Shown here piece by piece: positions 6,780-63,088 of a DNA stretch of 64,000 nucleotides (position 1 is the first letter of the stretch; each line of letters begins with the position of its first letter). The DNA is from Escherichia coli. Lineage in GTDB: Bacteria; Pseudomonadota; Gammaproteobacteria; Enterobacterales; Enterobacteriaceae. The DNA lies in the NCBI RefSeq assembly GCF_044324785.1, contig NZ_CP172127.1; one strand, given 5' to 3'. The notes beneath the pieces are model-generated. The model was not told the DNA's origin. It saw only the letters and a program-made list of their open reading frames with translations, and made no database searches. A program made the translations under genes and the position numbers.

Positions 6780-8141
6780 ATGTTTGATAATTTAACCGAT
6801 CGTTTGTCGCGCACGCTGCGCAATATCAGTGGCCGTGGACGCCTCACTGAAGACAACGTAAAAGATACGCTGCGCGAAGTGCGCATGGCGCTGCTGGAGG
6901 CGGACGTCGCTCTGCCGGTAGTGCGTGAGTTTATCAATCGCGTAAAAGAGAAAGCGGTTGGTCATGAAGTTAATAAGAGCCTGACGCCGGGGCAGGAGTT
7001 CGTCAAAATCGTCCGTAACGAACTGGTTGCGGCGATGGGCGAAGAGAACCAGACCCTGAACCTGGCTGCGCAACCGCCTGCGGTCGTGCTGATGGCGGGC
7101 CTGCAAGGTGCCGGTAAAACAACCAGCGTTGGTAAACTCGGTAAGTTCCTGCGCGAGAAGCACAAGAAGAAAGTGCTGGTGGTTTCCGCCGACGTTTATC
7201 GCCCGGCGGCAATCAAACAGCTTGAGACGCTGGCAGAGCAGGTGGGCGTTGATTTCTTCCCTTCTGATGTTGGTCAGAAGCCGGTAGATATCGTTAACGC
7301 GGCGCTGAAAGAAGCCAAACTGAAATTCTACGACGTGCTGCTGGTGGATACCGCTGGTCGTCTGCACGTTGACGAAGCGATGATGGATGAGATCAAACAA
7401 GTCCATGCGTCGATTAATCCGGTTGAAACCCTGTTTGTGGTTGACGCCATGACCGGTCAGGATGCGGCCAATACGGCAAAAGCATTCAATGAAGCGTTAC
7501 CGCTTACCGGTGTAGTGTTGACCAAAGTGGACGGCGATGCCCGCGGTGGTGCGGCGCTCTCTATTCGTCACATCACTGGCAAACCGATCAAGTTCCTCGG
7601 TGTTGGCGAGAAAACTGAGGCGCTGGAGCCGTTCCATCCGGACCGCATCGCGTCGCGTATTCTAGGCATGGGCGACGTACTGTCGCTGATCGAAGATATC
7701 GAAAGCAAAGTTGACCGCGCGCAGGCAGAGAAATTAGCCAGCAAGCTAAAAAAAGGCGACGGCTTCGATCTCAACGACTTCCTTGAGCAACTGCGCCAGA
7801 TGAAAAATATGGGCGGCATGGCCAGCTTGATGGGCAAACTGCCGGGCATGGGGCAGATCCCGGATAACGTCAAGTCACAGATGGACGATAAAGTGCTGGT
7901 GCGTATGGAAGCCATCATCAACTCGATGACGATGAAAGAGCGCGCTAAGCCAGAAATCATCAAAGGTTCGCGTAAGCGTCGTATCGCTGCCGGTTGCGGT
8001 ATGCAGGTGCAGGACGTTAACCGCCTTCTGAAGCAGTTCGACGACATGCAGCGCATGATGAAGAAAATGAAGAAGGGCGGAATGGCGAAGATGATGAGAA
8101 GCATGAAGGGTATGATGCCGCCGGGATTTCCTGGTCGCTAA
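6780..8141 (+). CDS. ffh: Signal recognition particle protein Ffh
   Basis: 453 aa, SRP54-type GTPase motifs GLQGAGKTT and DTAGR, Met-rich C-terminal domain. Confidence 0.95.
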   Translation: MFDNLTDRLSRTLRNISGRGRLTEDNVKDTLREVRMALLEADVALPVVREFINRVKEKAVGHEVNKSLTPGQEFVKIVRNELVAAMGEENQTLNLAAQPPAVVLMAGLQGAGKTTSVGKLGKFLREKHKKKVLVVSADVYRPAAIKQLETLAEQVGVDFFPSDVGQKPVDIVNAALKEAKLKFYDVLLVDTAGRLHVDEAMMDEIKQVHASINPVETLFVVDAMTGQDAANTAKAFNEALPLTGVVLTKVDGDARGGAALSIRHITGKPIKFLGVGEKTEALEPFHPDRIASRILGMGDVLSLIEDIESKVDRAQAEKLASKLKKGDGFDLNDFLEQLRQMKNMGGMASLMGKLPGMGQIPDNVKSQMDDKVLVRMEAIINSMTMKERAKPEIIKGSRKRRIAAGCGMQVQDVNRLLKQFDDMQRMMKKMKKGGMAKMMRSMKGMMPPGFPGR

Positions 8142-16740: not shown

Positions 16741-16776
16741 AATAAAAAAGGCCCCCCGATTTGGGAGGCCTTATTG
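16741..16776 (-). promoter_or_regulatory. pheA transcription attenuator (terminator hairpin between pheL and pheA)
   Basis: Minus strand reads CAATAAGGCCTCCCAAATCGGGGGGCCTTTTTTATT. Confidence 0.85.
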
Positions 16777-16818
16777 TTCGTCTTCGCATTCTGTTTCACA
16801 CGACGAAACGCCTCCCAT

Positions 16819-16866
16819 TCAGGGGAAGGTAAAAAAGAATGCGAAGAAAAACGGTGTGTGTTTCAT
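16819..16866 (-). CDS. pheL: pheA leader peptide (15 aa, seven Phe codons)
   Basis: Minus strand ATGAAACACACACCGTTTTTCTTCGCATTCTTTTTTACCTTCCCCTGA = [15 protein letters not shown]. Confidence 0.9.
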   Translation of the reverse strand: [15 protein letters not shown]

Positions 16867-16920
16867 GTTTGTTTCCTTAAGTGACTTCAGTACAGTACCC
16901 GTACTGTTTTCACGCTGTCA

Positions 16921-19434: not shown

Positions 19435-20162
19435 GTAAGCTGATTGTCCCGCAGTGGCCGCTGCCAAAAGGTGTTGCGGCCTGTAGCTCTACCCGTATCG
19501 GCGGCGTGAGCTTGCCGCCTTACGACTCTCTCAACCTTGGCGCTCATTGTGGTGATAACCCGGATCACGTTGAGGAGAATCGCAAGCGACTTTTTGCTGC
19601 GGGCAATTTGCCTTCTAAACCGGTCTGGCTTGAGCAGGTACACGGCAAAGATGTGCTTAAGCTTACTGGTGAACCTTATGCCTCAAAACGAGCAGATGCC
19701 TCTTATAGCAATACGCCCGGCACGGTTTGCGCAGTGATGACTGCCGACTGCCTCCCCGTGCTGTTTTGCAATCGAGCGGGAACGGAAGTCGCCGCCGCTC
19801 ATGCTGGCTGGCGTGGACTGTGCGCTGGCGTGTTGGAGGAGACGGTTTCCTGTTTTGCTGATAATCCGGAAAATATTCTCGCCTGGTTAGGGCCGGCAAT
19901 TGGTCCACGCGCGTTTGAAGTGGGGGCGGAGGTTCGCGAGGCGTTTATGGCAGTAGACGCCAAAGCGAGTACAGCTTTCATTCAGCATGGTGATAAGTAT
20001 CTGGCGGATATTTATCTCCTTGCCCGGCAGCGTCTGGCGAACGTCGGTGTCGAACAAATTTTCGGCGGCAACCGTTGTACATATACGGAAAATGAGACTT
20101 TCTTCTCTTATCGTCGCGACAAGACCACTGGTCGTATGGCAAGTTTCATTTGGCTGATATAA
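19431..20162 (+). CDS. pgeF: Peptidoglycan editing factor PgeF (YfiH)
   Basis: 243 aa; start overlaps rluD stop by 4 bp. Confidence 0.9.
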   Translation: MSKLIVPQWPLPKGVAACSSTRIGGVSLPPYDSLNLGAHCGDNPDHVEENRKRLFAAGNLPSKPVWLEQVHGKDVLKLTGEPYASKRADASYSNTPGTVCAVMTADCLPVLFCNRAGTEVAAAHAGWRGLCAGVLEETVSCFADNPENILAWLGPAIGPRAFEVGAEVREAFMAVDAKASTAFIQHGDKYLADIYLLARQRLANVGVEQIFGGNRCTYTENETFFSYRRDKTTGRMASFIWLI

Positions 20163-20224
20163 CCTAAAGAATCAAGACGATCCGGTACGCGTGATTTTCT
20201 TTTCACATTAATCTGGTCAATAAC

Positions 20225-20253
20225 CTTGAATAATTGAGGGATGACCTCATTTA
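20225..20253 (+). promoter_or_regulatory. Sigma-32 heat-shock promoter of clpB
   Basis: CTTGAAT, 13 nt spacer, CCTCATTTA. Confidence 0.7.
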
Positions 20254-20291
20254 ATCTCCAGTAGCAACTTTGATCCGTTATGGGAGGAGTT

Positions 20292-22865
20292 ATGCGTCTG
20301 GATCGTCTTACTAATAAATTCCAGCTTGCTCTTGCCGATGCCCAATCACTTGCACTCGGGCACGACAACCAATTCATCGAACCACTTCATTTAATGAGCG
20401 CCCTGCTGAATCAGGAAGGGGGTTCGGTTAGTCCTTTATTAACATCCGCTGGCATTAATGCTGGCCAGTTGCGCACAGATATCAATCAGGCATTAAATCG
20501 TTTACCGCAGGTTGAAGGTACTGGTGGTGATGTCCAGCCATCACAGGATCTGGTGCGCGTTCTTAATCTTTGCGACAAGTTGGCGCAAAAACGTGGTGAT
20601 AACTTTATCTCGTCAGAACTGTTCGTTCTGGCGGCACTTGAGTCTCGCGGCACGCTGGCCGACATCCTGAAAGCAGCAGGGGCGACCACCGCCAACATTA
20701 CTCAAGCGATTGAACAAATGCGTGGAGGTGAAAGCGTGAACGATCAAGGTGCTGAAGACCAACGTCAGGCTTTGAAAAAATATACCATCGACCTTACCGA
20801 ACGAGCCGAACAAGGCAAACTCGATCCGGTGATTGGTCGTGATGAAGAAATTCGCCGTACCATTCAGGTGCTGCAACGTCGTACTAAAAATAACCCGGTA
20901 CTGATTGGTGAACCAGGCGTCGGTAAAACTGCCATCGTTGAAGGTCTGGCGCAGCGTATCATCAACGGCGAAGTGCCGGAAGGGTTGAAAGGCCGCCGCG
21001 TACTGGCGCTGGATATGGGCGCGCTGGTGGCTGGGGCGAAATATCGCGGTGAGTTTGAAGAACGTTTAAAAGGCGTACTTAACGATCTTGCTAAACAGGA
21101 AGGCAACGTCATCCTGTTTATCGACGAATTACATACCATGGTCGGCGCGGGTAAAGCCGATGGCGCAATGGACGCCGGAAACATGCTGAAACCGGCGCTG
21201 GCGCGTGGTGAATTGCACTGCGTAGGTGCCACGACGCTTGACGAATATCGCCAGTACATCGAAAAAGATGCTGCGCTGGAGCGTCGTTTCCAGAAAGTGT
21301 TTGTTGCCGAGCCTTCTGTTGAAGACACCATTGCTATTCTGCGTGGCTTAAAAGAACGTTACGAACTGCACCACCATGTGCAAATTACTGACCCGGCAAT
21401 TGTTGCAGCTGCGACGTTGTCTCATCGCTACATTGCTGACCGTCAGCTGCCGGATAAAGCCATCGACCTGATCGATGAAGCAGCATCCAGCATTCGTATG
21501 CAGATTGACTCAAAACCAGAAGAACTCGACCGACTCGATCGTCGTATCATCCAGCTCAAACTGGAACAACAGGCGTTAATGAAAGAGTCTGATGAAGCCA
21601 GTAAAAAACGCCTGGATATGCTCAACGAAGAACTGAGCGACAAAGAACGTCAGTACTCCGAGTTAGAAGAAGAGTGGAAAGCAGAGAAAGCATCGCTTTC
21701 TGGTACACAGACCATTAAAGCGGAACTGGAACAGGCGAAAATCGCTATTGAACAGGCTCGCCGTGTGGGTGACCTGGCGCGGATGTCTGAACTGCAATAC
21801 GGCAAAATCCCGGAACTGGAAAAGCAACTGGAAGCCGCAACGCAGCTCGAAGGCAAAACTATGCGTCTGTTGCGTAATAAAGTGACCGACGCCGAAATTG
21901 CTGAAGTGCTGGCGCGTTGGACGGGGATTCCGGTTTCTCGCATGATGGAAAGCGAGCGCGAAAAACTGCTGCGTATGGAGCAAGAGCTGCACCATCGCGT
22001 TATTGGTCAGAACGAAGCGGTTGATGCGGTATCTAACGCTATTCGTCGTAGCCGTGCGGGGCTGGCGGATCCAAATCGCCCGATTGGTTCATTCCTGTTC
22101 CTCGGCCCAACGGGTGTGGGGAAAACTGAGCTTTGTAAGGCGCTGGCGAACTTTATGTTTGATAGCGACGAGGCGATGGTCCGTATCGATATGTCCGAGT
22201 TTATGGAGAAACACTCGGTGTCTCGTCTGGTTGGTGCGCCTCCGGGATATGTCGGTTATGAAGAAGGTGGCTACCTGACCGAAGCTGTGCGTCGTCGTCC
22301 GTATTCCGTCATCCTGCTGGATGAAGTGGAAAAAGCGCATCCGGATGTCTTCAACATTCTGTTGCAGGTACTGGATGATGGGCGTCTGACTGACGGGCAG
22401 GGGAGAACGGTCGACTTCCGTAATACGGTTGTCATTATGACCTCTAACCTCGGTTCCGATTTGATTCAGGAACGCTTCGGTGAACTGGATTATGCGCACA
22501 TGAAAGAGCTGGTGCTCGGTGTGGTAAGCCATAACTTCCGTCCGGAATTCATTAACCGTATCGATGAAGTGGTGGTCTTCCATCCGCTGGGTGAACAGCA
22601 CATTGCGTCGATTGCGCAGATTCAGTTGAAACGTCTGTATAAACGTCTGGAAGAACGTGGTTATGAAATCCACATTTCTGACGAGGCGCTGAAACTGCTG
22701 AGCGAGAACGGTTACGATCCGGTCTATGGTGCACGTCCTCTGAAACGTGCTATCCAGCAGCAGATCGAAAACCCGCTGGCACAGCAAATACTGTCTGGTG
22801 AATTGGTTCCGGGTAAAGTTATTCGCCTGGAAGTTAATGAAGACCGGATTGTCGCCGTCCAGTAA
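20292..22865 (+). CDS. clpB: Disaggregase chaperone ClpB (857 aa); internal GTG at 20736 is the ClpB-80 start
   Basis: [18 protein letters not shown]...; two AAA+ modules with Walker A GEPGVGKT and GPTGVGKT; the ORF-track start at 20280 is 4 codons too long. Confidence 0.95.
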
Positions 22866-23307: not shown

Positions 23308-24849
<1,542 letters not shown>

Positions 24850-24934
24850 CCTTAAAGAAGCGTTCTTTGTAGTGCTCACACAGATTGTCTGATAGAAAGT
24901 GAAAAGCAAGGCGTCTTGCGAAGCAGACTGATAC

Positions 24935-25010
24935 GTCCCCTTCGTCTAGAGGCCCAGGACACCGCCCTTTCACGGCGGTAACAGGGGTTCGAATCCCCTA
25001 GGGGACGCCA
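24935..25010 (+). tRNA. gltW: tRNA-Glu (UUC) in the 16S-23S spacer
   Basis: GTCCCCTTCGTCTAGAGGCCCAGGACACCGCCCTTTCACGGCGGTAACAGGGGTTCGAATCCCCTAGGGGACGCCA. Confidence 0.95.
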
Positions 25011-25194
25011 CTTGCTGGTTTGTGAGTGAAAGTCACCTGCCTTGATATCTCAAAACTCATCTTCGGGTGATGTTTGAGATATTTGCTCTTTAAAAATCTG
25101 GATCAAGCTGAAAATTGAAACACTGAACAACGAAAGTTGTTCGTGAGTCTCTCAAATTTTCGCAACTCTGAAGTGAAACATCTTCGGGTTGTGA

Positions 25195-28099
<2,905 letters not shown>

Positions 28100-28191
28100 A
28101 CAACGCCGAAGATGTTTTGGCGGATGAGAGAAGATTTTCAGCCTGATACAGATTAAATCAGAACGCAGAAGCGGTCTGATAAAACAGAATT

Positions 28192-28311
28192 TGCCTGGCG
28201 GCCGTAGCGCGGTGGTCCCACCTGACCCCATGCCGAACTCAGAAGTGAAACGCCGTAGCGCCGATGGTAGTGTGGGGTCTCCCCATGCGAGAGTAGGGAA
28301 CTGCCAGGCAT
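28192..28311 (+). rRNA. rrfG: 5S ribosomal RNA (rrnG operon)
   Basis: TGCCTGGCGGCCGTAGCGCGGTGG...GGGAACTGCCAGGCAT, 120 nt. Confidence 0.97.
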
Positions 28312-45490: not shown

Positions 45491-46446
45491 TGAAGCAACT
45501 TTGGTTTGCCATGTCATTAGTGACAGGTAGCCTGTTATTCTCTGCTAACGCCTCGGCCACTCCCGCGTCCGGGGCGTTATTACAGCAGATGAACCTGGCC
45601 AGTCAGTCACTGAATTACGAGCTGTCATTTATCAGCATCAATAAACAGGGTGTTGAGTCTCTGCGTTATCGACATGCACGCCTCGATAACCGTCCTCTTG
45701 CACAATTGTTGCAAATGGATGGCCCGCGCCGGGAAGTGGTACAGCGCGGCAATGAAATCAGCTATTTTGAACCGGGACTTGAACCGTTCACGCTTAATGG
45801 CGATTACATTGTTGATTCTCTGCCATCGCTCATCTATACCGATTTCAAACGCCTTTCTCCTTACTACGACTTTATCTCCGTCGGGCGCACGCGTATTGCT
45901 GATCGTCTTTGCGAAGTCATTCGCGTGGTTGCCCGAGATGGTACACGCTACAGCTACATCGTGTGGATGGACACCGAATCGAAATTACCGATGCGGGTTG
46001 ATCTCCTTGATCGCGATGGTGAAACGCTGGAACAATTTCGCGTGATTGCTTTTAACGTCAATCAGGATATCGGCAGCAGTATGCAGACGCTGGCGAAGGC
46101 AAATTTGCCGCCGTTGCTTTCTGTTCCTGTAGGTGAAAAAGCTAAATTCAGCTGGACGCCAACCTGGTTGCCACAGGGTTTTAGCGAAGTTTCCAGTAGT
46201 CGACGTCCGCTACCGACGATGGACAACATGCCTATCGAATCACGTCTCTATTCCGACGGATTATTCAGCTTCTCGGTAAACGTTAACCGCGCTACGCCAT
46301 CGAGCACCGATCAGATGTTGCGCACCGGGCGCAGAACCGTCAGTACAAGCGTACGTGATAACGCCGAAATCACCATTGTCGGTGAACTGCCGCCGCAAAC
46401 GGCGAAACGCATTGCCGAGAATATTAAGTTCGGGGCAGCGCAATGA
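45490..46446 (+). CDS. rseB: Sigma-E regulatory protein RseB
   Basis: 318 aa with signal peptide; stop/start overlap with rseA. Confidence 0.95.
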   Translation: MKQLWFAMSLVTGSLLFSANASATPASGALLQQMNLASQSLNYELSFISINKQGVESLRYRHARLDNRPLAQLLQMDGPRREVVQRGNEISYFEPGLEPFTLNGDYIVDSLPSLIYTDFKRLSPYYDFISVGRTRIADRLCEVIRVVARDGTRYSYIVWMDTESKLPMRVDLLDRDGETLEQFRVIAFNVNQDIGSSMQTLAKANLPPLLSVPVGEKAKFSWTPTWLPQGFSEVSSSRRPLPTMDNMPIESRLYSDGLFSFSVNVNRATPSSTDQMLRTGRRTVSTSVRDNAEITIVGELPPQTAKRIAENIKFGAAQ

Positions 46447-46922
46447 TCAAAGAGTGGGCTACCGTCGTCTCCTGGGAAAACGGGCAGGCGCTGGTTAGTT
46501 GTGATGTTAAAGCCTCATGCAGCAGCTGCGCTTCACGCGCCGGTTGCGGTAGCCGCGTGTTGAATAAACTTGGCCCGCAAACCACGCATACCATTGTCGT
46601 ACCCTGTGATGAGCCGTTAGTGCCGGGGCAAAAAGTGGAATTGGGGATCGCCGAAGGCAGCCTGCTTAGCTCCGCATTACTGGTTTATATGTCGCCGCTG
46701 GTGGGATTATTTCTCATCGCTTCGCTATTTCAGCTACTCTTTGCTTCAGATATTGCAGCATTATGCGGTGCGATTCTCGGTGGCGTTGGTGGATTCCTGA
46801 TTGCACGTGGCTGCTCTCGAAAGTTTGCTGCCCGGTCTGAATGGCAACCGATCATCTTAAGCGTGGCATTGCCGCCTGGCCTTGTGCGATTTGAAACATC
46901 TTCGGAAGACGCGAGCCAGTGA
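46443..46922 (+). CDS. rseC: Sigma-E regulatory protein RseC
   Basis: 159 aa, membrane protein with Cys-rich N-terminus. Confidence 0.9.
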   Translation: MIKEWATVVSWENGQALVSCDVKASCSSCASRAGCGSRVLNKLGPQTTHTIVVPCDEPLVPGQKVELGIAEGSLLSSALLVYMSPLVGLFLIASLFQLLFASDIAALCGAILGGVGGFLIARGCSRKFAARSEWQPIILSVALPPGLVRFETSSEDASQ

Positions 46923-47119
46923 TTTCACTGGCTTTGTTGCATTTTGCATAACAAATGCGAGGACGTTTCCAGATACCACAATCCATACGGTATGAACATT
47001 TCCTCGCCTCAATGTTGTAGTGTAGAATGCGGCGTTTCTATTAATACAGACGTTAAGCTCAGAACAGCGACTTCTAAAAGCCTGGTTAACCGGGCATTAA
47101 GGCACAATAATCATACTTT

Positions 47120-48919
<1,800 letters not shown>

Positions 48920-53627: not shown

Positions 53628-53653
53628 AAATAATACCGTTCTCTTTATAAAGT

Positions 53654-53692
53654 AAAACCCCCGAACTGGTAAGGAACGGGGGTTTTACTTTT
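53654..53692. terminator. acpS terminator, bidirectional
   Basis: AAAACCCCCGAACTGGTAAGGAACGGGGGTTTTACTTTTT. Confidence 0.8.
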
Positions 53693-54048
53693 TAACTTTA
53701 ATTTTGTGCAGCACACGATTCCAACGGAAATGATTATGGATCAATTTCGTTATCCTGTACAAGCAACTTGCAATCTCTGACATAAAAAACGCGAGCCTTT
53801 ACGAAGAAATCGACATTGATGAAAAGATTAACGTGACCGCTTTTTGATAAGTACATTAAAATCGGTTTCGTTATTGGCAATTTTGCTGTGCTTTACACCA
53901 TGCCACTGAATTCCCCCATTGAAACGAGTGGTGTCGTCAAAGCTCTGGTGTGGAGTGCAGCACTCGATTCCAATAACTCGCACGTTCAGTTTTGGGGAGA
54001 TGTAAGGGCTAATCTGAACGGCTGCATTCCTTGTTTAAGGAAAAACGA

Positions 54049-62904: not shown

Positions 62905-63088
62905 AGTGGCTCATTCACCGACTTATGTCAGCCCCTTCGGGACGTGCTACATAAAATTCGAATGACGCACAACAAGGTGCCTGCCGTCCAACTTCTGATA
63001 TCAGCGTAGCTATATCAACCATCGGGCGAAACGTCGAGTTAGGCACCGCCTTATTCCATAACAAAGCCGGGTAATTCCCGGCTTTGTT
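62905..63088 (+). ncRNA. glmY: Small regulatory RNA GlmY (GlmZ decoy controlling glmS)
   Basis: Starts about 12 nt downstream of the sigma-54 -12 element at AGTGGCTCATTCACC; ends at terminator AAAGCCGGGTAATTCCCGGCTTTGTTGT; position between purL and glrK. Confidence 0.8.

Follow-up and report, generated by a model that had tools for sequence, protein, structure and literature searches.

The small RNA RyfD, which lies upstream of clpB, was reportedly first described by Kawano et al. in 2005 and filed as a 5′-UTR-derived sRNA. It has been catalogued in Escherichia coli K-12 and in Rfam for years and is not a new RNA. RyfD (Ysr155) was validated by northern blotting in Yersinia pestis and Yersinia pseudotuberculosis, where it was constitutive with respect to temperature and hfq, and its gene context in Y. 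pestis, y0913 > / > / y0914 (clpB) >, is the same as that described here (PMC3672283). The RNA is Hfq-independent according to the literature (PMC4606813, PMC3672283). In Salmonella, RyfD was among the most abundant ProQ ligands, with strong and reproducible enrichment (PMC8136791). It was termed 'the abundant ProQ-associated sRNA' in a study in which ProQ RIL-seq named both RyfD and lpp mRNA as putative RaiZ targets and in which ProQ ligands were frequently derived from 3′ ends (PMC9438474). SEC-seq recovered RyfD in unusual fractions, with no ORF, no ribosome association and no clear partner (10.1101/2022.09.02.506378). Overexpression reduced swarming and biofilm formation, both modest phenotypes (PMC4606813), and RyfD was among the sRNAs with the fewest genetic interactions in a double-deletion screen (PMC9426594). 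A recent preprint using TRIC-seq proximity ligation reported a strong, odds-ratio-enriched contact between RyfD and the lpp 5′UTR (bioRxiv 10.1101/2025.09.11.675593, 2025).

Three groups of described systems resemble this locus. As in 5′-UTR-derived sRNAs, which arise by premature termination or as riboswitch or attenuator fragments, RyfD lies in sense orientation over the beginning of a gene, and as there its 3′ end falls just inside or before the ORF; it differs in that its start is not shared with the known sigma-32 clpB mRNA and, compared with riboswitch or attenuator fragments, in having no evident ligand-sensing or leader-peptide element. In the rpoH thermosensor and in ROSE and fourU elements, as in RyfD, the Shine-Dalgarno sequence and AUG of a heat-shock gene are paired with upstream sequence. 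Their helices are metastable, however, whereas that of RyfD is long and very stable, and relief is predicted to come from a different, internal promoter rather than from melting. With type I 3′-UTR-derived sRNAs such as DapZ and MicL, RyfD would share a promoter within the upstream coding sequence, here yfiH, and RyfD is probably also an end point of upstream operon transcripts; with RaiZ, a ProQ-dependent 3′-derived sRNA, it shares ProQ association. Members of this class have their 3′ ends at canonical intrinsic terminators within genuine 3′ UTRs, whereas RyfD has no U-tract and ends in the first codons of the next gene, and, unlike them, it encloses the promoter and ribosome-binding site of that gene. 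In architecture, RyfD resembles type I 3′-UTR sRNAs and ProQ ligands like RaiZ more closely than it does a classical 5′-UTR fragment.

Location of RyfD between yfiH and clpB

In the window (the whole 64,000-nucleotide stretch of E. coli DNA that was analyzed), the last base of the yfiH (= pgeF) ORF is 20162 and clpB begins with the ATG at 20292, and 20163-20291 is exactly the pgeF(yfiH)-clpB intergenic spacer. A scan of the whole window against Rfam gave a match to family RF02768 (Ysr155_RyfD) at 20173-20311 on the + strand (125.3 bits, E=6e-27) that spans the full model (positions 1-140 of 140) and exceeds, in combined sequence and secondary-structure score, the gathering cut-off of 42 bits. 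In the K-12 MG1655 record, the minus-strand ncRNA ryfD (b4609) occupies 2734153..2734295 and shares 21 nt with the beginning of clpB. Alignment showed 100% identity between the window and K-12 over 201 nt around the site (window position = 2754465 - K-12 coordinate), and ryfD is therefore assigned as follows.

20170-20312, + strand: RyfD small RNA (b4609; RF02768), 143 nt, placed by the K-12 annotation through the identical alignment and by Rfam

The 5′ end lies 8 nt past the yfiH stop codon and the 3′ end 21 nt inside the clpB coding sequence, covering codons 1-7. As in the rest of the family, the RNA sits between yfiH and clpB, on the clpB strand, and overlaps the clpB start. A 701-nt query around the site matched 5425/5426 complete E. 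coli genomes, with annotated yfiH and clpB, and the RyfD sequence is at least 99% identical, single-copy and chromosomal in 5425/5426 E. coli genomes. Sequence, full covariance-model match, yfiH-clpB synteny and the published Term-seq 3′ end all agree that this is the same gene as RyfD/Ysr155; we found no difference at this locus, and only interpretation is added here.

A sequence-only reading of this DNA had tentatively mentioned RyfD as annotated near clpB and had flagged a possible small RNA in 20163-20291. Both b4609 and RF02768 map onto that interval, and alignment to the annotated ryfD coordinates, the check proposed with that reading, was positive, so it is practically certain that the flagged interval holds this known, abundant, ProQ-associated enterobacterial small RNA. 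An RNA is indeed present, but within other limits than those suspected: it begins at 20170 and runs to 20312, in clpB.

A conserved helix that buries the clpB start

The 143-nt RyfD was predicted to fold with -52 kcal/mol (z = -5.6 versus dinucleotide shuffles), and its dominant element is a 23-bp closing helix with one bulged U (U17). The elements of interest are the following.

20174-20197, + strand: 5′ arm of the closing helix (RyfD nt 5-28), supported by the MFE structure, the centroid structure and the Rfam consensus
20287-20309, + strand: 3′ arm of the closing helix, RyfD nt 118-140, in the MFE and centroid folds
20256-20259, + strand: anti-Shine-Dalgarno CUCC, pairing with GGAG at 20283-20286, supported by fold and alignment

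The 3′ arm spans the last Shine-Dalgarno base, the spacer, the clpB start codon (20292-20294) and codons 2-6, and both the outer helix and the Shine-Dalgarno hairpin of the predicted fold recur in the Rfam consensus structure. The long helix and the z-score correspond to the double-stranded structure of ProQ-type RNAs, the ProQ association itself being taken from the literature.

Conservation was assessed with an exact-pattern scan of one genome per species, which returned at least 120 Enterobacterales loci, including Escherichia, Salmonella, Citrobacter, Klebsiella, Enterobacter, Serratia, Yersinia, Pectobacterium, Dickeya and Erwinia. The search pattern fixes part of the central region, so that conservation can be read only from the unfixed positions and the flanks. 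Among the matches listed, the closing helix is kept in about 100 Enterobacterales species. Standard pairs make up 91.2% of the helix in 106 distinct sequences among those matches, and sliding the partner by 1-3 columns lowers pairing to 38-45%. In the outer 11 bp, nearly all variation is pair-keeping (A/G opposite U or C/U opposite G); breaks there are limited to one G-to-A change in L109 and to two arm-less sequences described below. The CUCC-GGAG helix (helix 5) is 98% paired and almost invariant among the matches listed. Double-sided covariation is sparse, with 5 pairs among the listed matches, a number reached by 98/500 shuffles; such strict covariation is thin because the 3′ arm is locked by coding. 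Raoultella terrigena (L085) and a metagenomic sequence (L127) have GAC in place of GAT at codon 4, matched by a compensating A-to-G change in the arm; the codon change stands once without compensation, leaving an A.C mismatch, in another metagenomic sequence (L128).

The coding side of the helix is constrained beyond the protein sequence. In 114 distinct sequences among the matches listed, the synonymous entropies of clpB codons 2-6 (CGT CTG GAT CGT CTT) are 0.13, 0.07, 0.18, 0.13 and 0.00 bits, as against 1.06 bits for codon 7, the first beyond the helix, and 1.2-2.2 bits for other Leu codons among the matches listed. On this comparison, the closing helix freezes the synonymous sites of codons 2-6.

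Two other structural elements were considered and rejected. The inner helices 2 and 3 of the E. coli MFE structure are only 57% and 81% paired in other genera and were not retained as conserved structure. Extended precursor helices joining yfiH GGCAAG/GGCUG to clpB codons 11-15 in a 261-nt fold carry an A.C mismatch in 59/119 listed sequences, and variants in these proposed helices mostly break pairs.

Both RyfD ends lie 3-4 nt beyond the closing helix. Term-seq reported a 3′ end at K-12 2734153 (window 20312), which is listed under both ryfD and clpB (Adams et al. 2021, PMC7815308 supplement). Its scores, 2.7e7 and 7.4e7, exceed those of neighboring entries by a factor of hundreds, and its Rho score is only 1.28 (PMC7815308). 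By the estimate of that study, most scored 3′ ends are neither intrinsic nor Rho-dependent and are probably products of processing (PMC7815308). No terminator-like site was detected at 20312 and there is no U-tract, the 3′ tail reading ...CGUCUUACU. With no GC-rich hairpin and U-tract at its 3′ end, RyfD is therefore not an Hfq-type sRNA. The closing helix would be the element that defines both ends of the RNA, and it may take part in 3′-end formation.

A heat-shock promoter nested inside RyfD

The sequence-only reading had also placed a sigma-32 promoter and the clpB leader in the 129 bp interval, and both were located there.

20225-20252, + strand: clpB sigma-32 (heat-shock) promoter, CTTGAA-N14-CCTCATTT, found by consensus scan

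This is the sole match to the sigma-32 consensus in the 64 kb window, where 0.02 would be expected by chance; the clpB Shine-Dalgarno sequence, GGGAGGA, follows at 20282-20288. The promoter is invariant in the homologues listed, part of its sequence being fixed by the search pattern. From promoter geometry, the sigma-32 start site should lie at about 20258-20260. The RyfD 5′ end (20170) is 88-90 nt upstream of that start and 55 nt upstream of the -35 box, which makes '5′-UTR-derived', a label that the sequence-only reading had offered for a possible RNA in the interval, mechanistically doubtful. Because the sigma-32 promoter lies inside RyfD, the RNA cannot be derived from the heat-shock clpB mRNA. 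Conversely, the heat-shock mRNA should lack the 5′ arm, and, since the anti-Shine-Dalgarno lies at or upstream of the deduced start, most of that element as well.

The sigma-32 transcript is itself not very open, with a predicted opening cost of ~14 kcal/mol. An alternative hairpin covering the Shine-Dalgarno sequence in this transcript was rejected, as its 5′ strand varies without compensation among genera. A small ORF from the in-frame ATG at 20280, which would add an MGGV extension to ClpB, was likewise discarded: the codon is ATT in Yersinia and Serratia, and SEC-seq gave no ribosome association.

A putative promoter at the end of yfiH

Upstream of RyfD, the last codons of yfiH hold two promoter-like boxes.

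20136-20141, + strand: putative -35-like hexamer ATGGCA in the last yfiH codons (CGT ATG GCA AGT), a 4/6 match to TTGACA
20155-20165, + strand: putative extended -10-like block TGATATAACCT, which runs across the yfiH stop codon and is recognized by conservation

Within this block, TGATATAAC occupies 20155-20163; its hexamer TATAAC lies 7 nt upstream of the annotated start of RyfD and is spaced 16 nt from ATGGCA. In 117 sequences among the matches listed, the TG bases are present in 115 and 112, the bases of the ATAAC core in 109-117 and the first T of TATAAC in 104. The rare Ile codon ATA is kept in 101/102 sequences among the matches listed, and where the last YfiH residue changes from Ile to Arg the nucleotides NATAAC are nevertheless retained. 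The non-coding CCTA that follows the yfiH stop codon (+3 to +6) is also conserved among the matches listed. The yfiH codons over the boxes have low synonymous entropy in 117 listed sequences (CGT 0.40, GCA 0.37, AGT 0.07, CTG 0.43 and ATA 0.08 bits), whereas the spacer between the boxes holds two unconstrained codons (0.98 and 0.91 bits in 117 sequences among the matches listed); other Arg, Thr and Gly codons nearby have 1.3-1.8 bits among the matches listed.

A sigma-70 consensus scan reported no site. It missed the extended -10 block because it demands T at hexamer position 6; TATAAC is without this usually important T, and TAACCT, which overlaps it, could serve as the hexamer instead. Judged by eye against their consensus sequences, sigma-E and sigma-S promoters fitted the block less well than an extended -10 sigma-70 promoter.

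Two RyfD-less lineages keep the sigma-32 promoter and clpB and have lost both the 5′ arm and the TGATATAAC block. In the first (L009 and L045), the anti-Shine-Dalgarno is retained, although it is fixed by the search pattern; otherwise frozen clpB codons carry the synonymous changes GAC and CGC, and RF02768 scores are 54-65 bits, compared with 100-160 bits in typical species. In the second (L125 and L130), an AT-rich relative with the same pheL...yfiH-clpB-rrn synteny, the anti-Shine-Dalgarno is lost and a different sequence stands in its place, and the otherwise frozen codons carry GAC and TTA; an RF02768 scan of L125 gave no match. In the RyfD-less loci, GCA in yfiH has become GCC, and the TGATATAAC block is absent from all four. 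These two lineages have relaxed the synonymous sites of clpB codons 2-6. The box-spacer-box pattern of constraint, the co-loss with RyfD and the temperature-independence of the RNA in Yersinia together argue for a sigma-32-independent promoter of its own. RyfD is thus probably driven by its own sigma-70 extended -10-type promoter, TGATATAAC, with a start at 20170.

Possible effects on clpB and lpp

We propose that RyfD would be transcribed independently from the TGATATAAC promoter rather than from the sigma-32 clpB promoter. As polymerase enters clpB, RNA nt 5-28 would pair with the clpB start codon and codons 2-6, the internal CUCC would pair with the Shine-Dalgarno sequence and the 23-bp helix would close. 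RNA initiated upstream, whether at the RyfD promoter or by read-through from rluD-yfiH, would then have a closed clpB ribosome-binding site and would mostly stop at codon 7, and ClpB synthesis would depend on the nested sigma-32 promoter, whose transcript would lack the 5′ arm and the anti-Shine-Dalgarno. In agreement with this, opening the clpB ribosome-binding site (-13 to +12) is predicted, over 116 listed loci, to cost 29.3 +/- 4.2 kcal/mol in the transcript with the RyfD start and 13.9 +/- 1.7 kcal/mol in that with the sigma-32 start; the difference exceeds 5 kcal/mol in 114/116 of them and is about zero in the arm-less L009 and L045. The opening-cost gap and the dominant 3′ end at codon 7 jointly suggest that upstream transcripts are closed and stopped. 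That clpB is in this way left to the sigma-32 promoter is a tentative reading of thermodynamics and conservation, to which we give a little less than an even chance.

A further part of the proposal concerns lpp mRNA and the following element.

20251-20265, + strand: candidate seed UUAAUCUCCAGUAGC, RyfD nt 82-96, complementary to lpp mRNA nt 1-16

Nucleotides 1-16 of lpp mRNA read GCUACAUGGAGAUUAA, and the stretch of interest for RyfD pairing at its 5′ end is GCUACAUGGAGAUU. The predicted RyfD-lpp duplex has 15 bp and one bulged A, with -21.6 kcal/mol, and only 1/60 shuffled lpp leaders did as well. Opening is predicted to cost 5.1 kcal/mol in RyfD and 5.6 in lpp, and the lpp seed is partly base-paired inside RyfD. 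The computed duplex independently reproduces the pairing proposed from TRIC-seq (10.1101/2025.09.11.675593). The unfixed positions of AATCTCCAGTAGCAA are almost invariant across genera among the matches listed. As the seed stretch doubles as the anti-Shine-Dalgarno and the start of the heat-shock mRNA, this conservation does not single out a seed function. After release, the structured RyfD, bound by ProQ according to the literature, might act through UUAAUCUCCAGUAGC on the 5′ end of lpp mRNA; such an action in trans, suggested by the modeled duplex, is possible, and we rate it somewhat lower than the effect on clpB.

Alternative explanations

The most skeptical reading, that no discrete RNA exists and that the sigma-32 promoter, the clpB leader and selection on the protein account for all the conservation, has next to no probability left and is already refuted by published transcript data. 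Much of the conserved core is indeed promoter and ribosome-binding site, but the 3′ end at codon 7 is sharp and very abundant (PMC7815308), the RNA was validated by northern blotting in Yersinia (PMC3672283) and recovered by ProQ co-immunoprecipitation, SEC-seq and TRIC-seq (PMC8136791, 10.1101/2022.09.02.506378, 10.1101/2025.09.11.675593), and a conserved 5′ arm upstream of the promoter complements the frozen synonymous sites. Hardly better placed is an RNA thermometer in the clpB leader, in which the helix over the Shine-Dalgarno sequence and AUG would melt on heat shock and upstream transcripts would then yield ClpB. It draws on the resemblance to ROSE, fourU and rpoH thermosensors and on the fact that clpB is a heat-shock gene whose long transcript hides both the Shine-Dalgarno sequence and the start codon. 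By predicted energies, however, this is not a metastable helix opening at 30-42°C: with 23 near-continuous bp, -52 kcal/mol in total and an opening cost of about 29 kcal/mol, it is too stable, the transcript ends at codon 7 (PMC7815308), and RyfD levels in Yersinia were the same at 26 and 37°C (PMC3672283). Too stable and unresponsive to temperature, RyfD is no plausible thermometer, and we consider this reading very improbable.

Two further readings accept the RNA and dispute its origin or its function. RyfD might be a processing product, trimmed from rluD-yfiH read-through to the ends of the closing helix and thus a 3′-UTR-derived fragment of yfiH mRNA. Such an origin is possible because a search for terminator-like sites found none from the yfiH stop (20162) to the start of RyfD, the sole + strand hairpin being inside RyfD. 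Ends 3-4 nt outside the helix are what exonucleases halted by a stable stem would leave, ProQ ligands are often 3′-end-derived (PMC9438474), and Adams et al. estimated that most scored 3′ ends are probably processed (PMC7815308). Against this, a conserved -10-like block stands exactly 7 nt before the 5′ end, with box-spacer-box synonymous constraint; the Term-seq signal is far above that expected for the tail of a housekeeping operon (PMC7815308); the main texts of RNase III transcriptome surveys name no site in the RyfD interval, referring only to the rrsG-clpB spacer or to ClpB; and the outer helices that could guide cleavage are not maintained, as the A.C mismatch in 59/119 listed sequences indicates. 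We regard processing as improbable. The view that RyfD is only a by-product in cis, the stable residue of a clpB leader that is attenuated or acts as an insulator, with no function in trans, carries more weight, although we still judge it rather unlikely. The closing helix consumes the clpB translation start, a deletion phenotype is not established and genetic interactions are few (PMC9426594), SEC-seq revealed no clear partner (10.1101/2022.09.02.506378), and RyfD-lpp proximity contacts could be incidental because both RNAs are extremely abundant. It fits less well with the near-invariance of the free positions of AATCTCCAGTAGCAA across genera among the matches listed, the strong, reproducible ProQ enrichment (PMC8136791), the specific lpp enrichment by TRIC-seq odds ratio (10.1101/2025.09.11.675593), the naming of RyfD as a putative RaiZ target in ProQ RIL-seq (PMC9438474) and the lowered swarming and biofilm formation on overexpression (PMC4606813).

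We therefore favor, as the probable explanation of the locus as a whole, an RNA with its own promoter and a closing helix, closure of clpB in cis and a ProQ-bound action in trans on lpp. The sharper statement, that RyfD is a promoter-selective gate around the clpB heat-shock promoter as well as a ProQ-bound RNA regulating the 5′ end of lpp mRNA, is one that we put forward as unlikely in its full form. In it, the closing helix would halt and silence all RNA arriving from upstream, whether from the RyfD promoter or from rluD-yfiH, and ClpB would be made solely from the nested sigma-32 start.

Biological implications

What remains of interest is that RyfD is among the most abundant ProQ-associated RNAs, yet its function is not established. 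To this our analysis adds an anatomy: a putative promoter of its own, a nested heat-shock promoter, a helix that buries the clpB start, two lineages that have lost the RNA and a 15-bp match to lpp. Two cautions for annotation follow. The label '5′-UTR-derived' is probably wrong for RyfD, and the first clpB codons are under RNA-level as well as protein-level selection. If the gate reading is true, a constitutive signal from a chaperone locus would be tied to the synthesis of the major envelope lipoprotein.

Lineages without RyfD and pairing in the closing helix

Two lineages at the homologous yfiH-clpB loci of other Enterobacterales genomes lack RyfD, the small RNA encoded between yfiH (pgeF) and clpB:

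L009:2998-3151 and L045:5955-6107, first RyfD-less lineage
L125 around 7640-7860 and L130 around 2120-2340, second RyfD-less lineage

In both, yfiH, the sigma-32 promoter and clpB are retained, and what has been lost is the RyfD 5' arm together with the TGATATAAC block, an extended -10-like element that overlaps the yfiH stop codon and is the putative RyfD promoter; the second lineage has additionally lost the anti-SD. Codons 4-6 of clpB in all four loci carry synonymous changes that are never or almost never found elsewhere among the matches listed. A metagenomic, Enterobacter-like locus (L128:9996-10213) has GAC as clpB codon 4 opposite an unaltered 5' arm; the closing helix, which pairs this arm with the clpB start, thereby acquires one A.C mismatch that is not compensated. 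This locus is a counter-example against strict compensation in the closing helix.

Hairpins within RyfD and the start of clpB

One short, terminator-like hairpin internal to RyfD was flagged:

20235-20249, + strand, TGAGG-GATGA-CCTCA followed by TTTAATCT

This element overlaps the spacer and -10 region of the sigma-32 promoter, yet RyfD extends 60 nt past it. The predicted heat-shock transcript could form a hairpin of its own over the SD and AUG (GCAACUUU with GGAGU..UGC, 20258-20301), with a predicted opening cost of approximately 14 kcal/mol; its 5' strand varies between genera with no compensation. The longest clpB open reading frame begins at an in-frame ATG at 20280, 12 nt 5' of the clpB start, and would add an MGGV extension (20280-20294). 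Because this ATG is replaced by ATT in Yersinia and Serratia, it is unlikely to serve as a genuine start.

Other RNA elements in the window

The Rfam scan also identified the following elements:

16742-16867, - strand, pheL leader (known element)
25088-25187, + strand, StyR-44 (Salmonella npcRNA 44)
46407-47238, - strand, AsrC (Salmonella antisense RNA of rseC), strong match at 507 bits
50022-50236, + strand, rncO leader of rnc (known element)
53649-53725, - strand, ohsC antitoxin RNA (known element)
62905-63052, + strand, GlmY (known element)

The AsrC match may be due to nothing more than sequence conservation of rseC, which is encoded on the opposite strand. The StyR-44 match, also present in L125, is situated between a tRNA (24935-25007) and the 23S rRNA gene, in a spacer of the ribosomal RNA operon 3' of clpB (23308-28309).

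Constraint past the RyfD 3' end

Close 3' of the RyfD end, after two freely varying codons, the synonymous sites of clpB codons 9-12 (AAATTCCAGCTT, 20316-20327) are nearly frozen (0.07-0.34 bits among the homologues listed), forming a second such run. A predicted pairing of these codons with GGCUG of yfiH in a longer precursor found no support in sequence variation. A termination, processing or pause signal could be the cause of this freezing.
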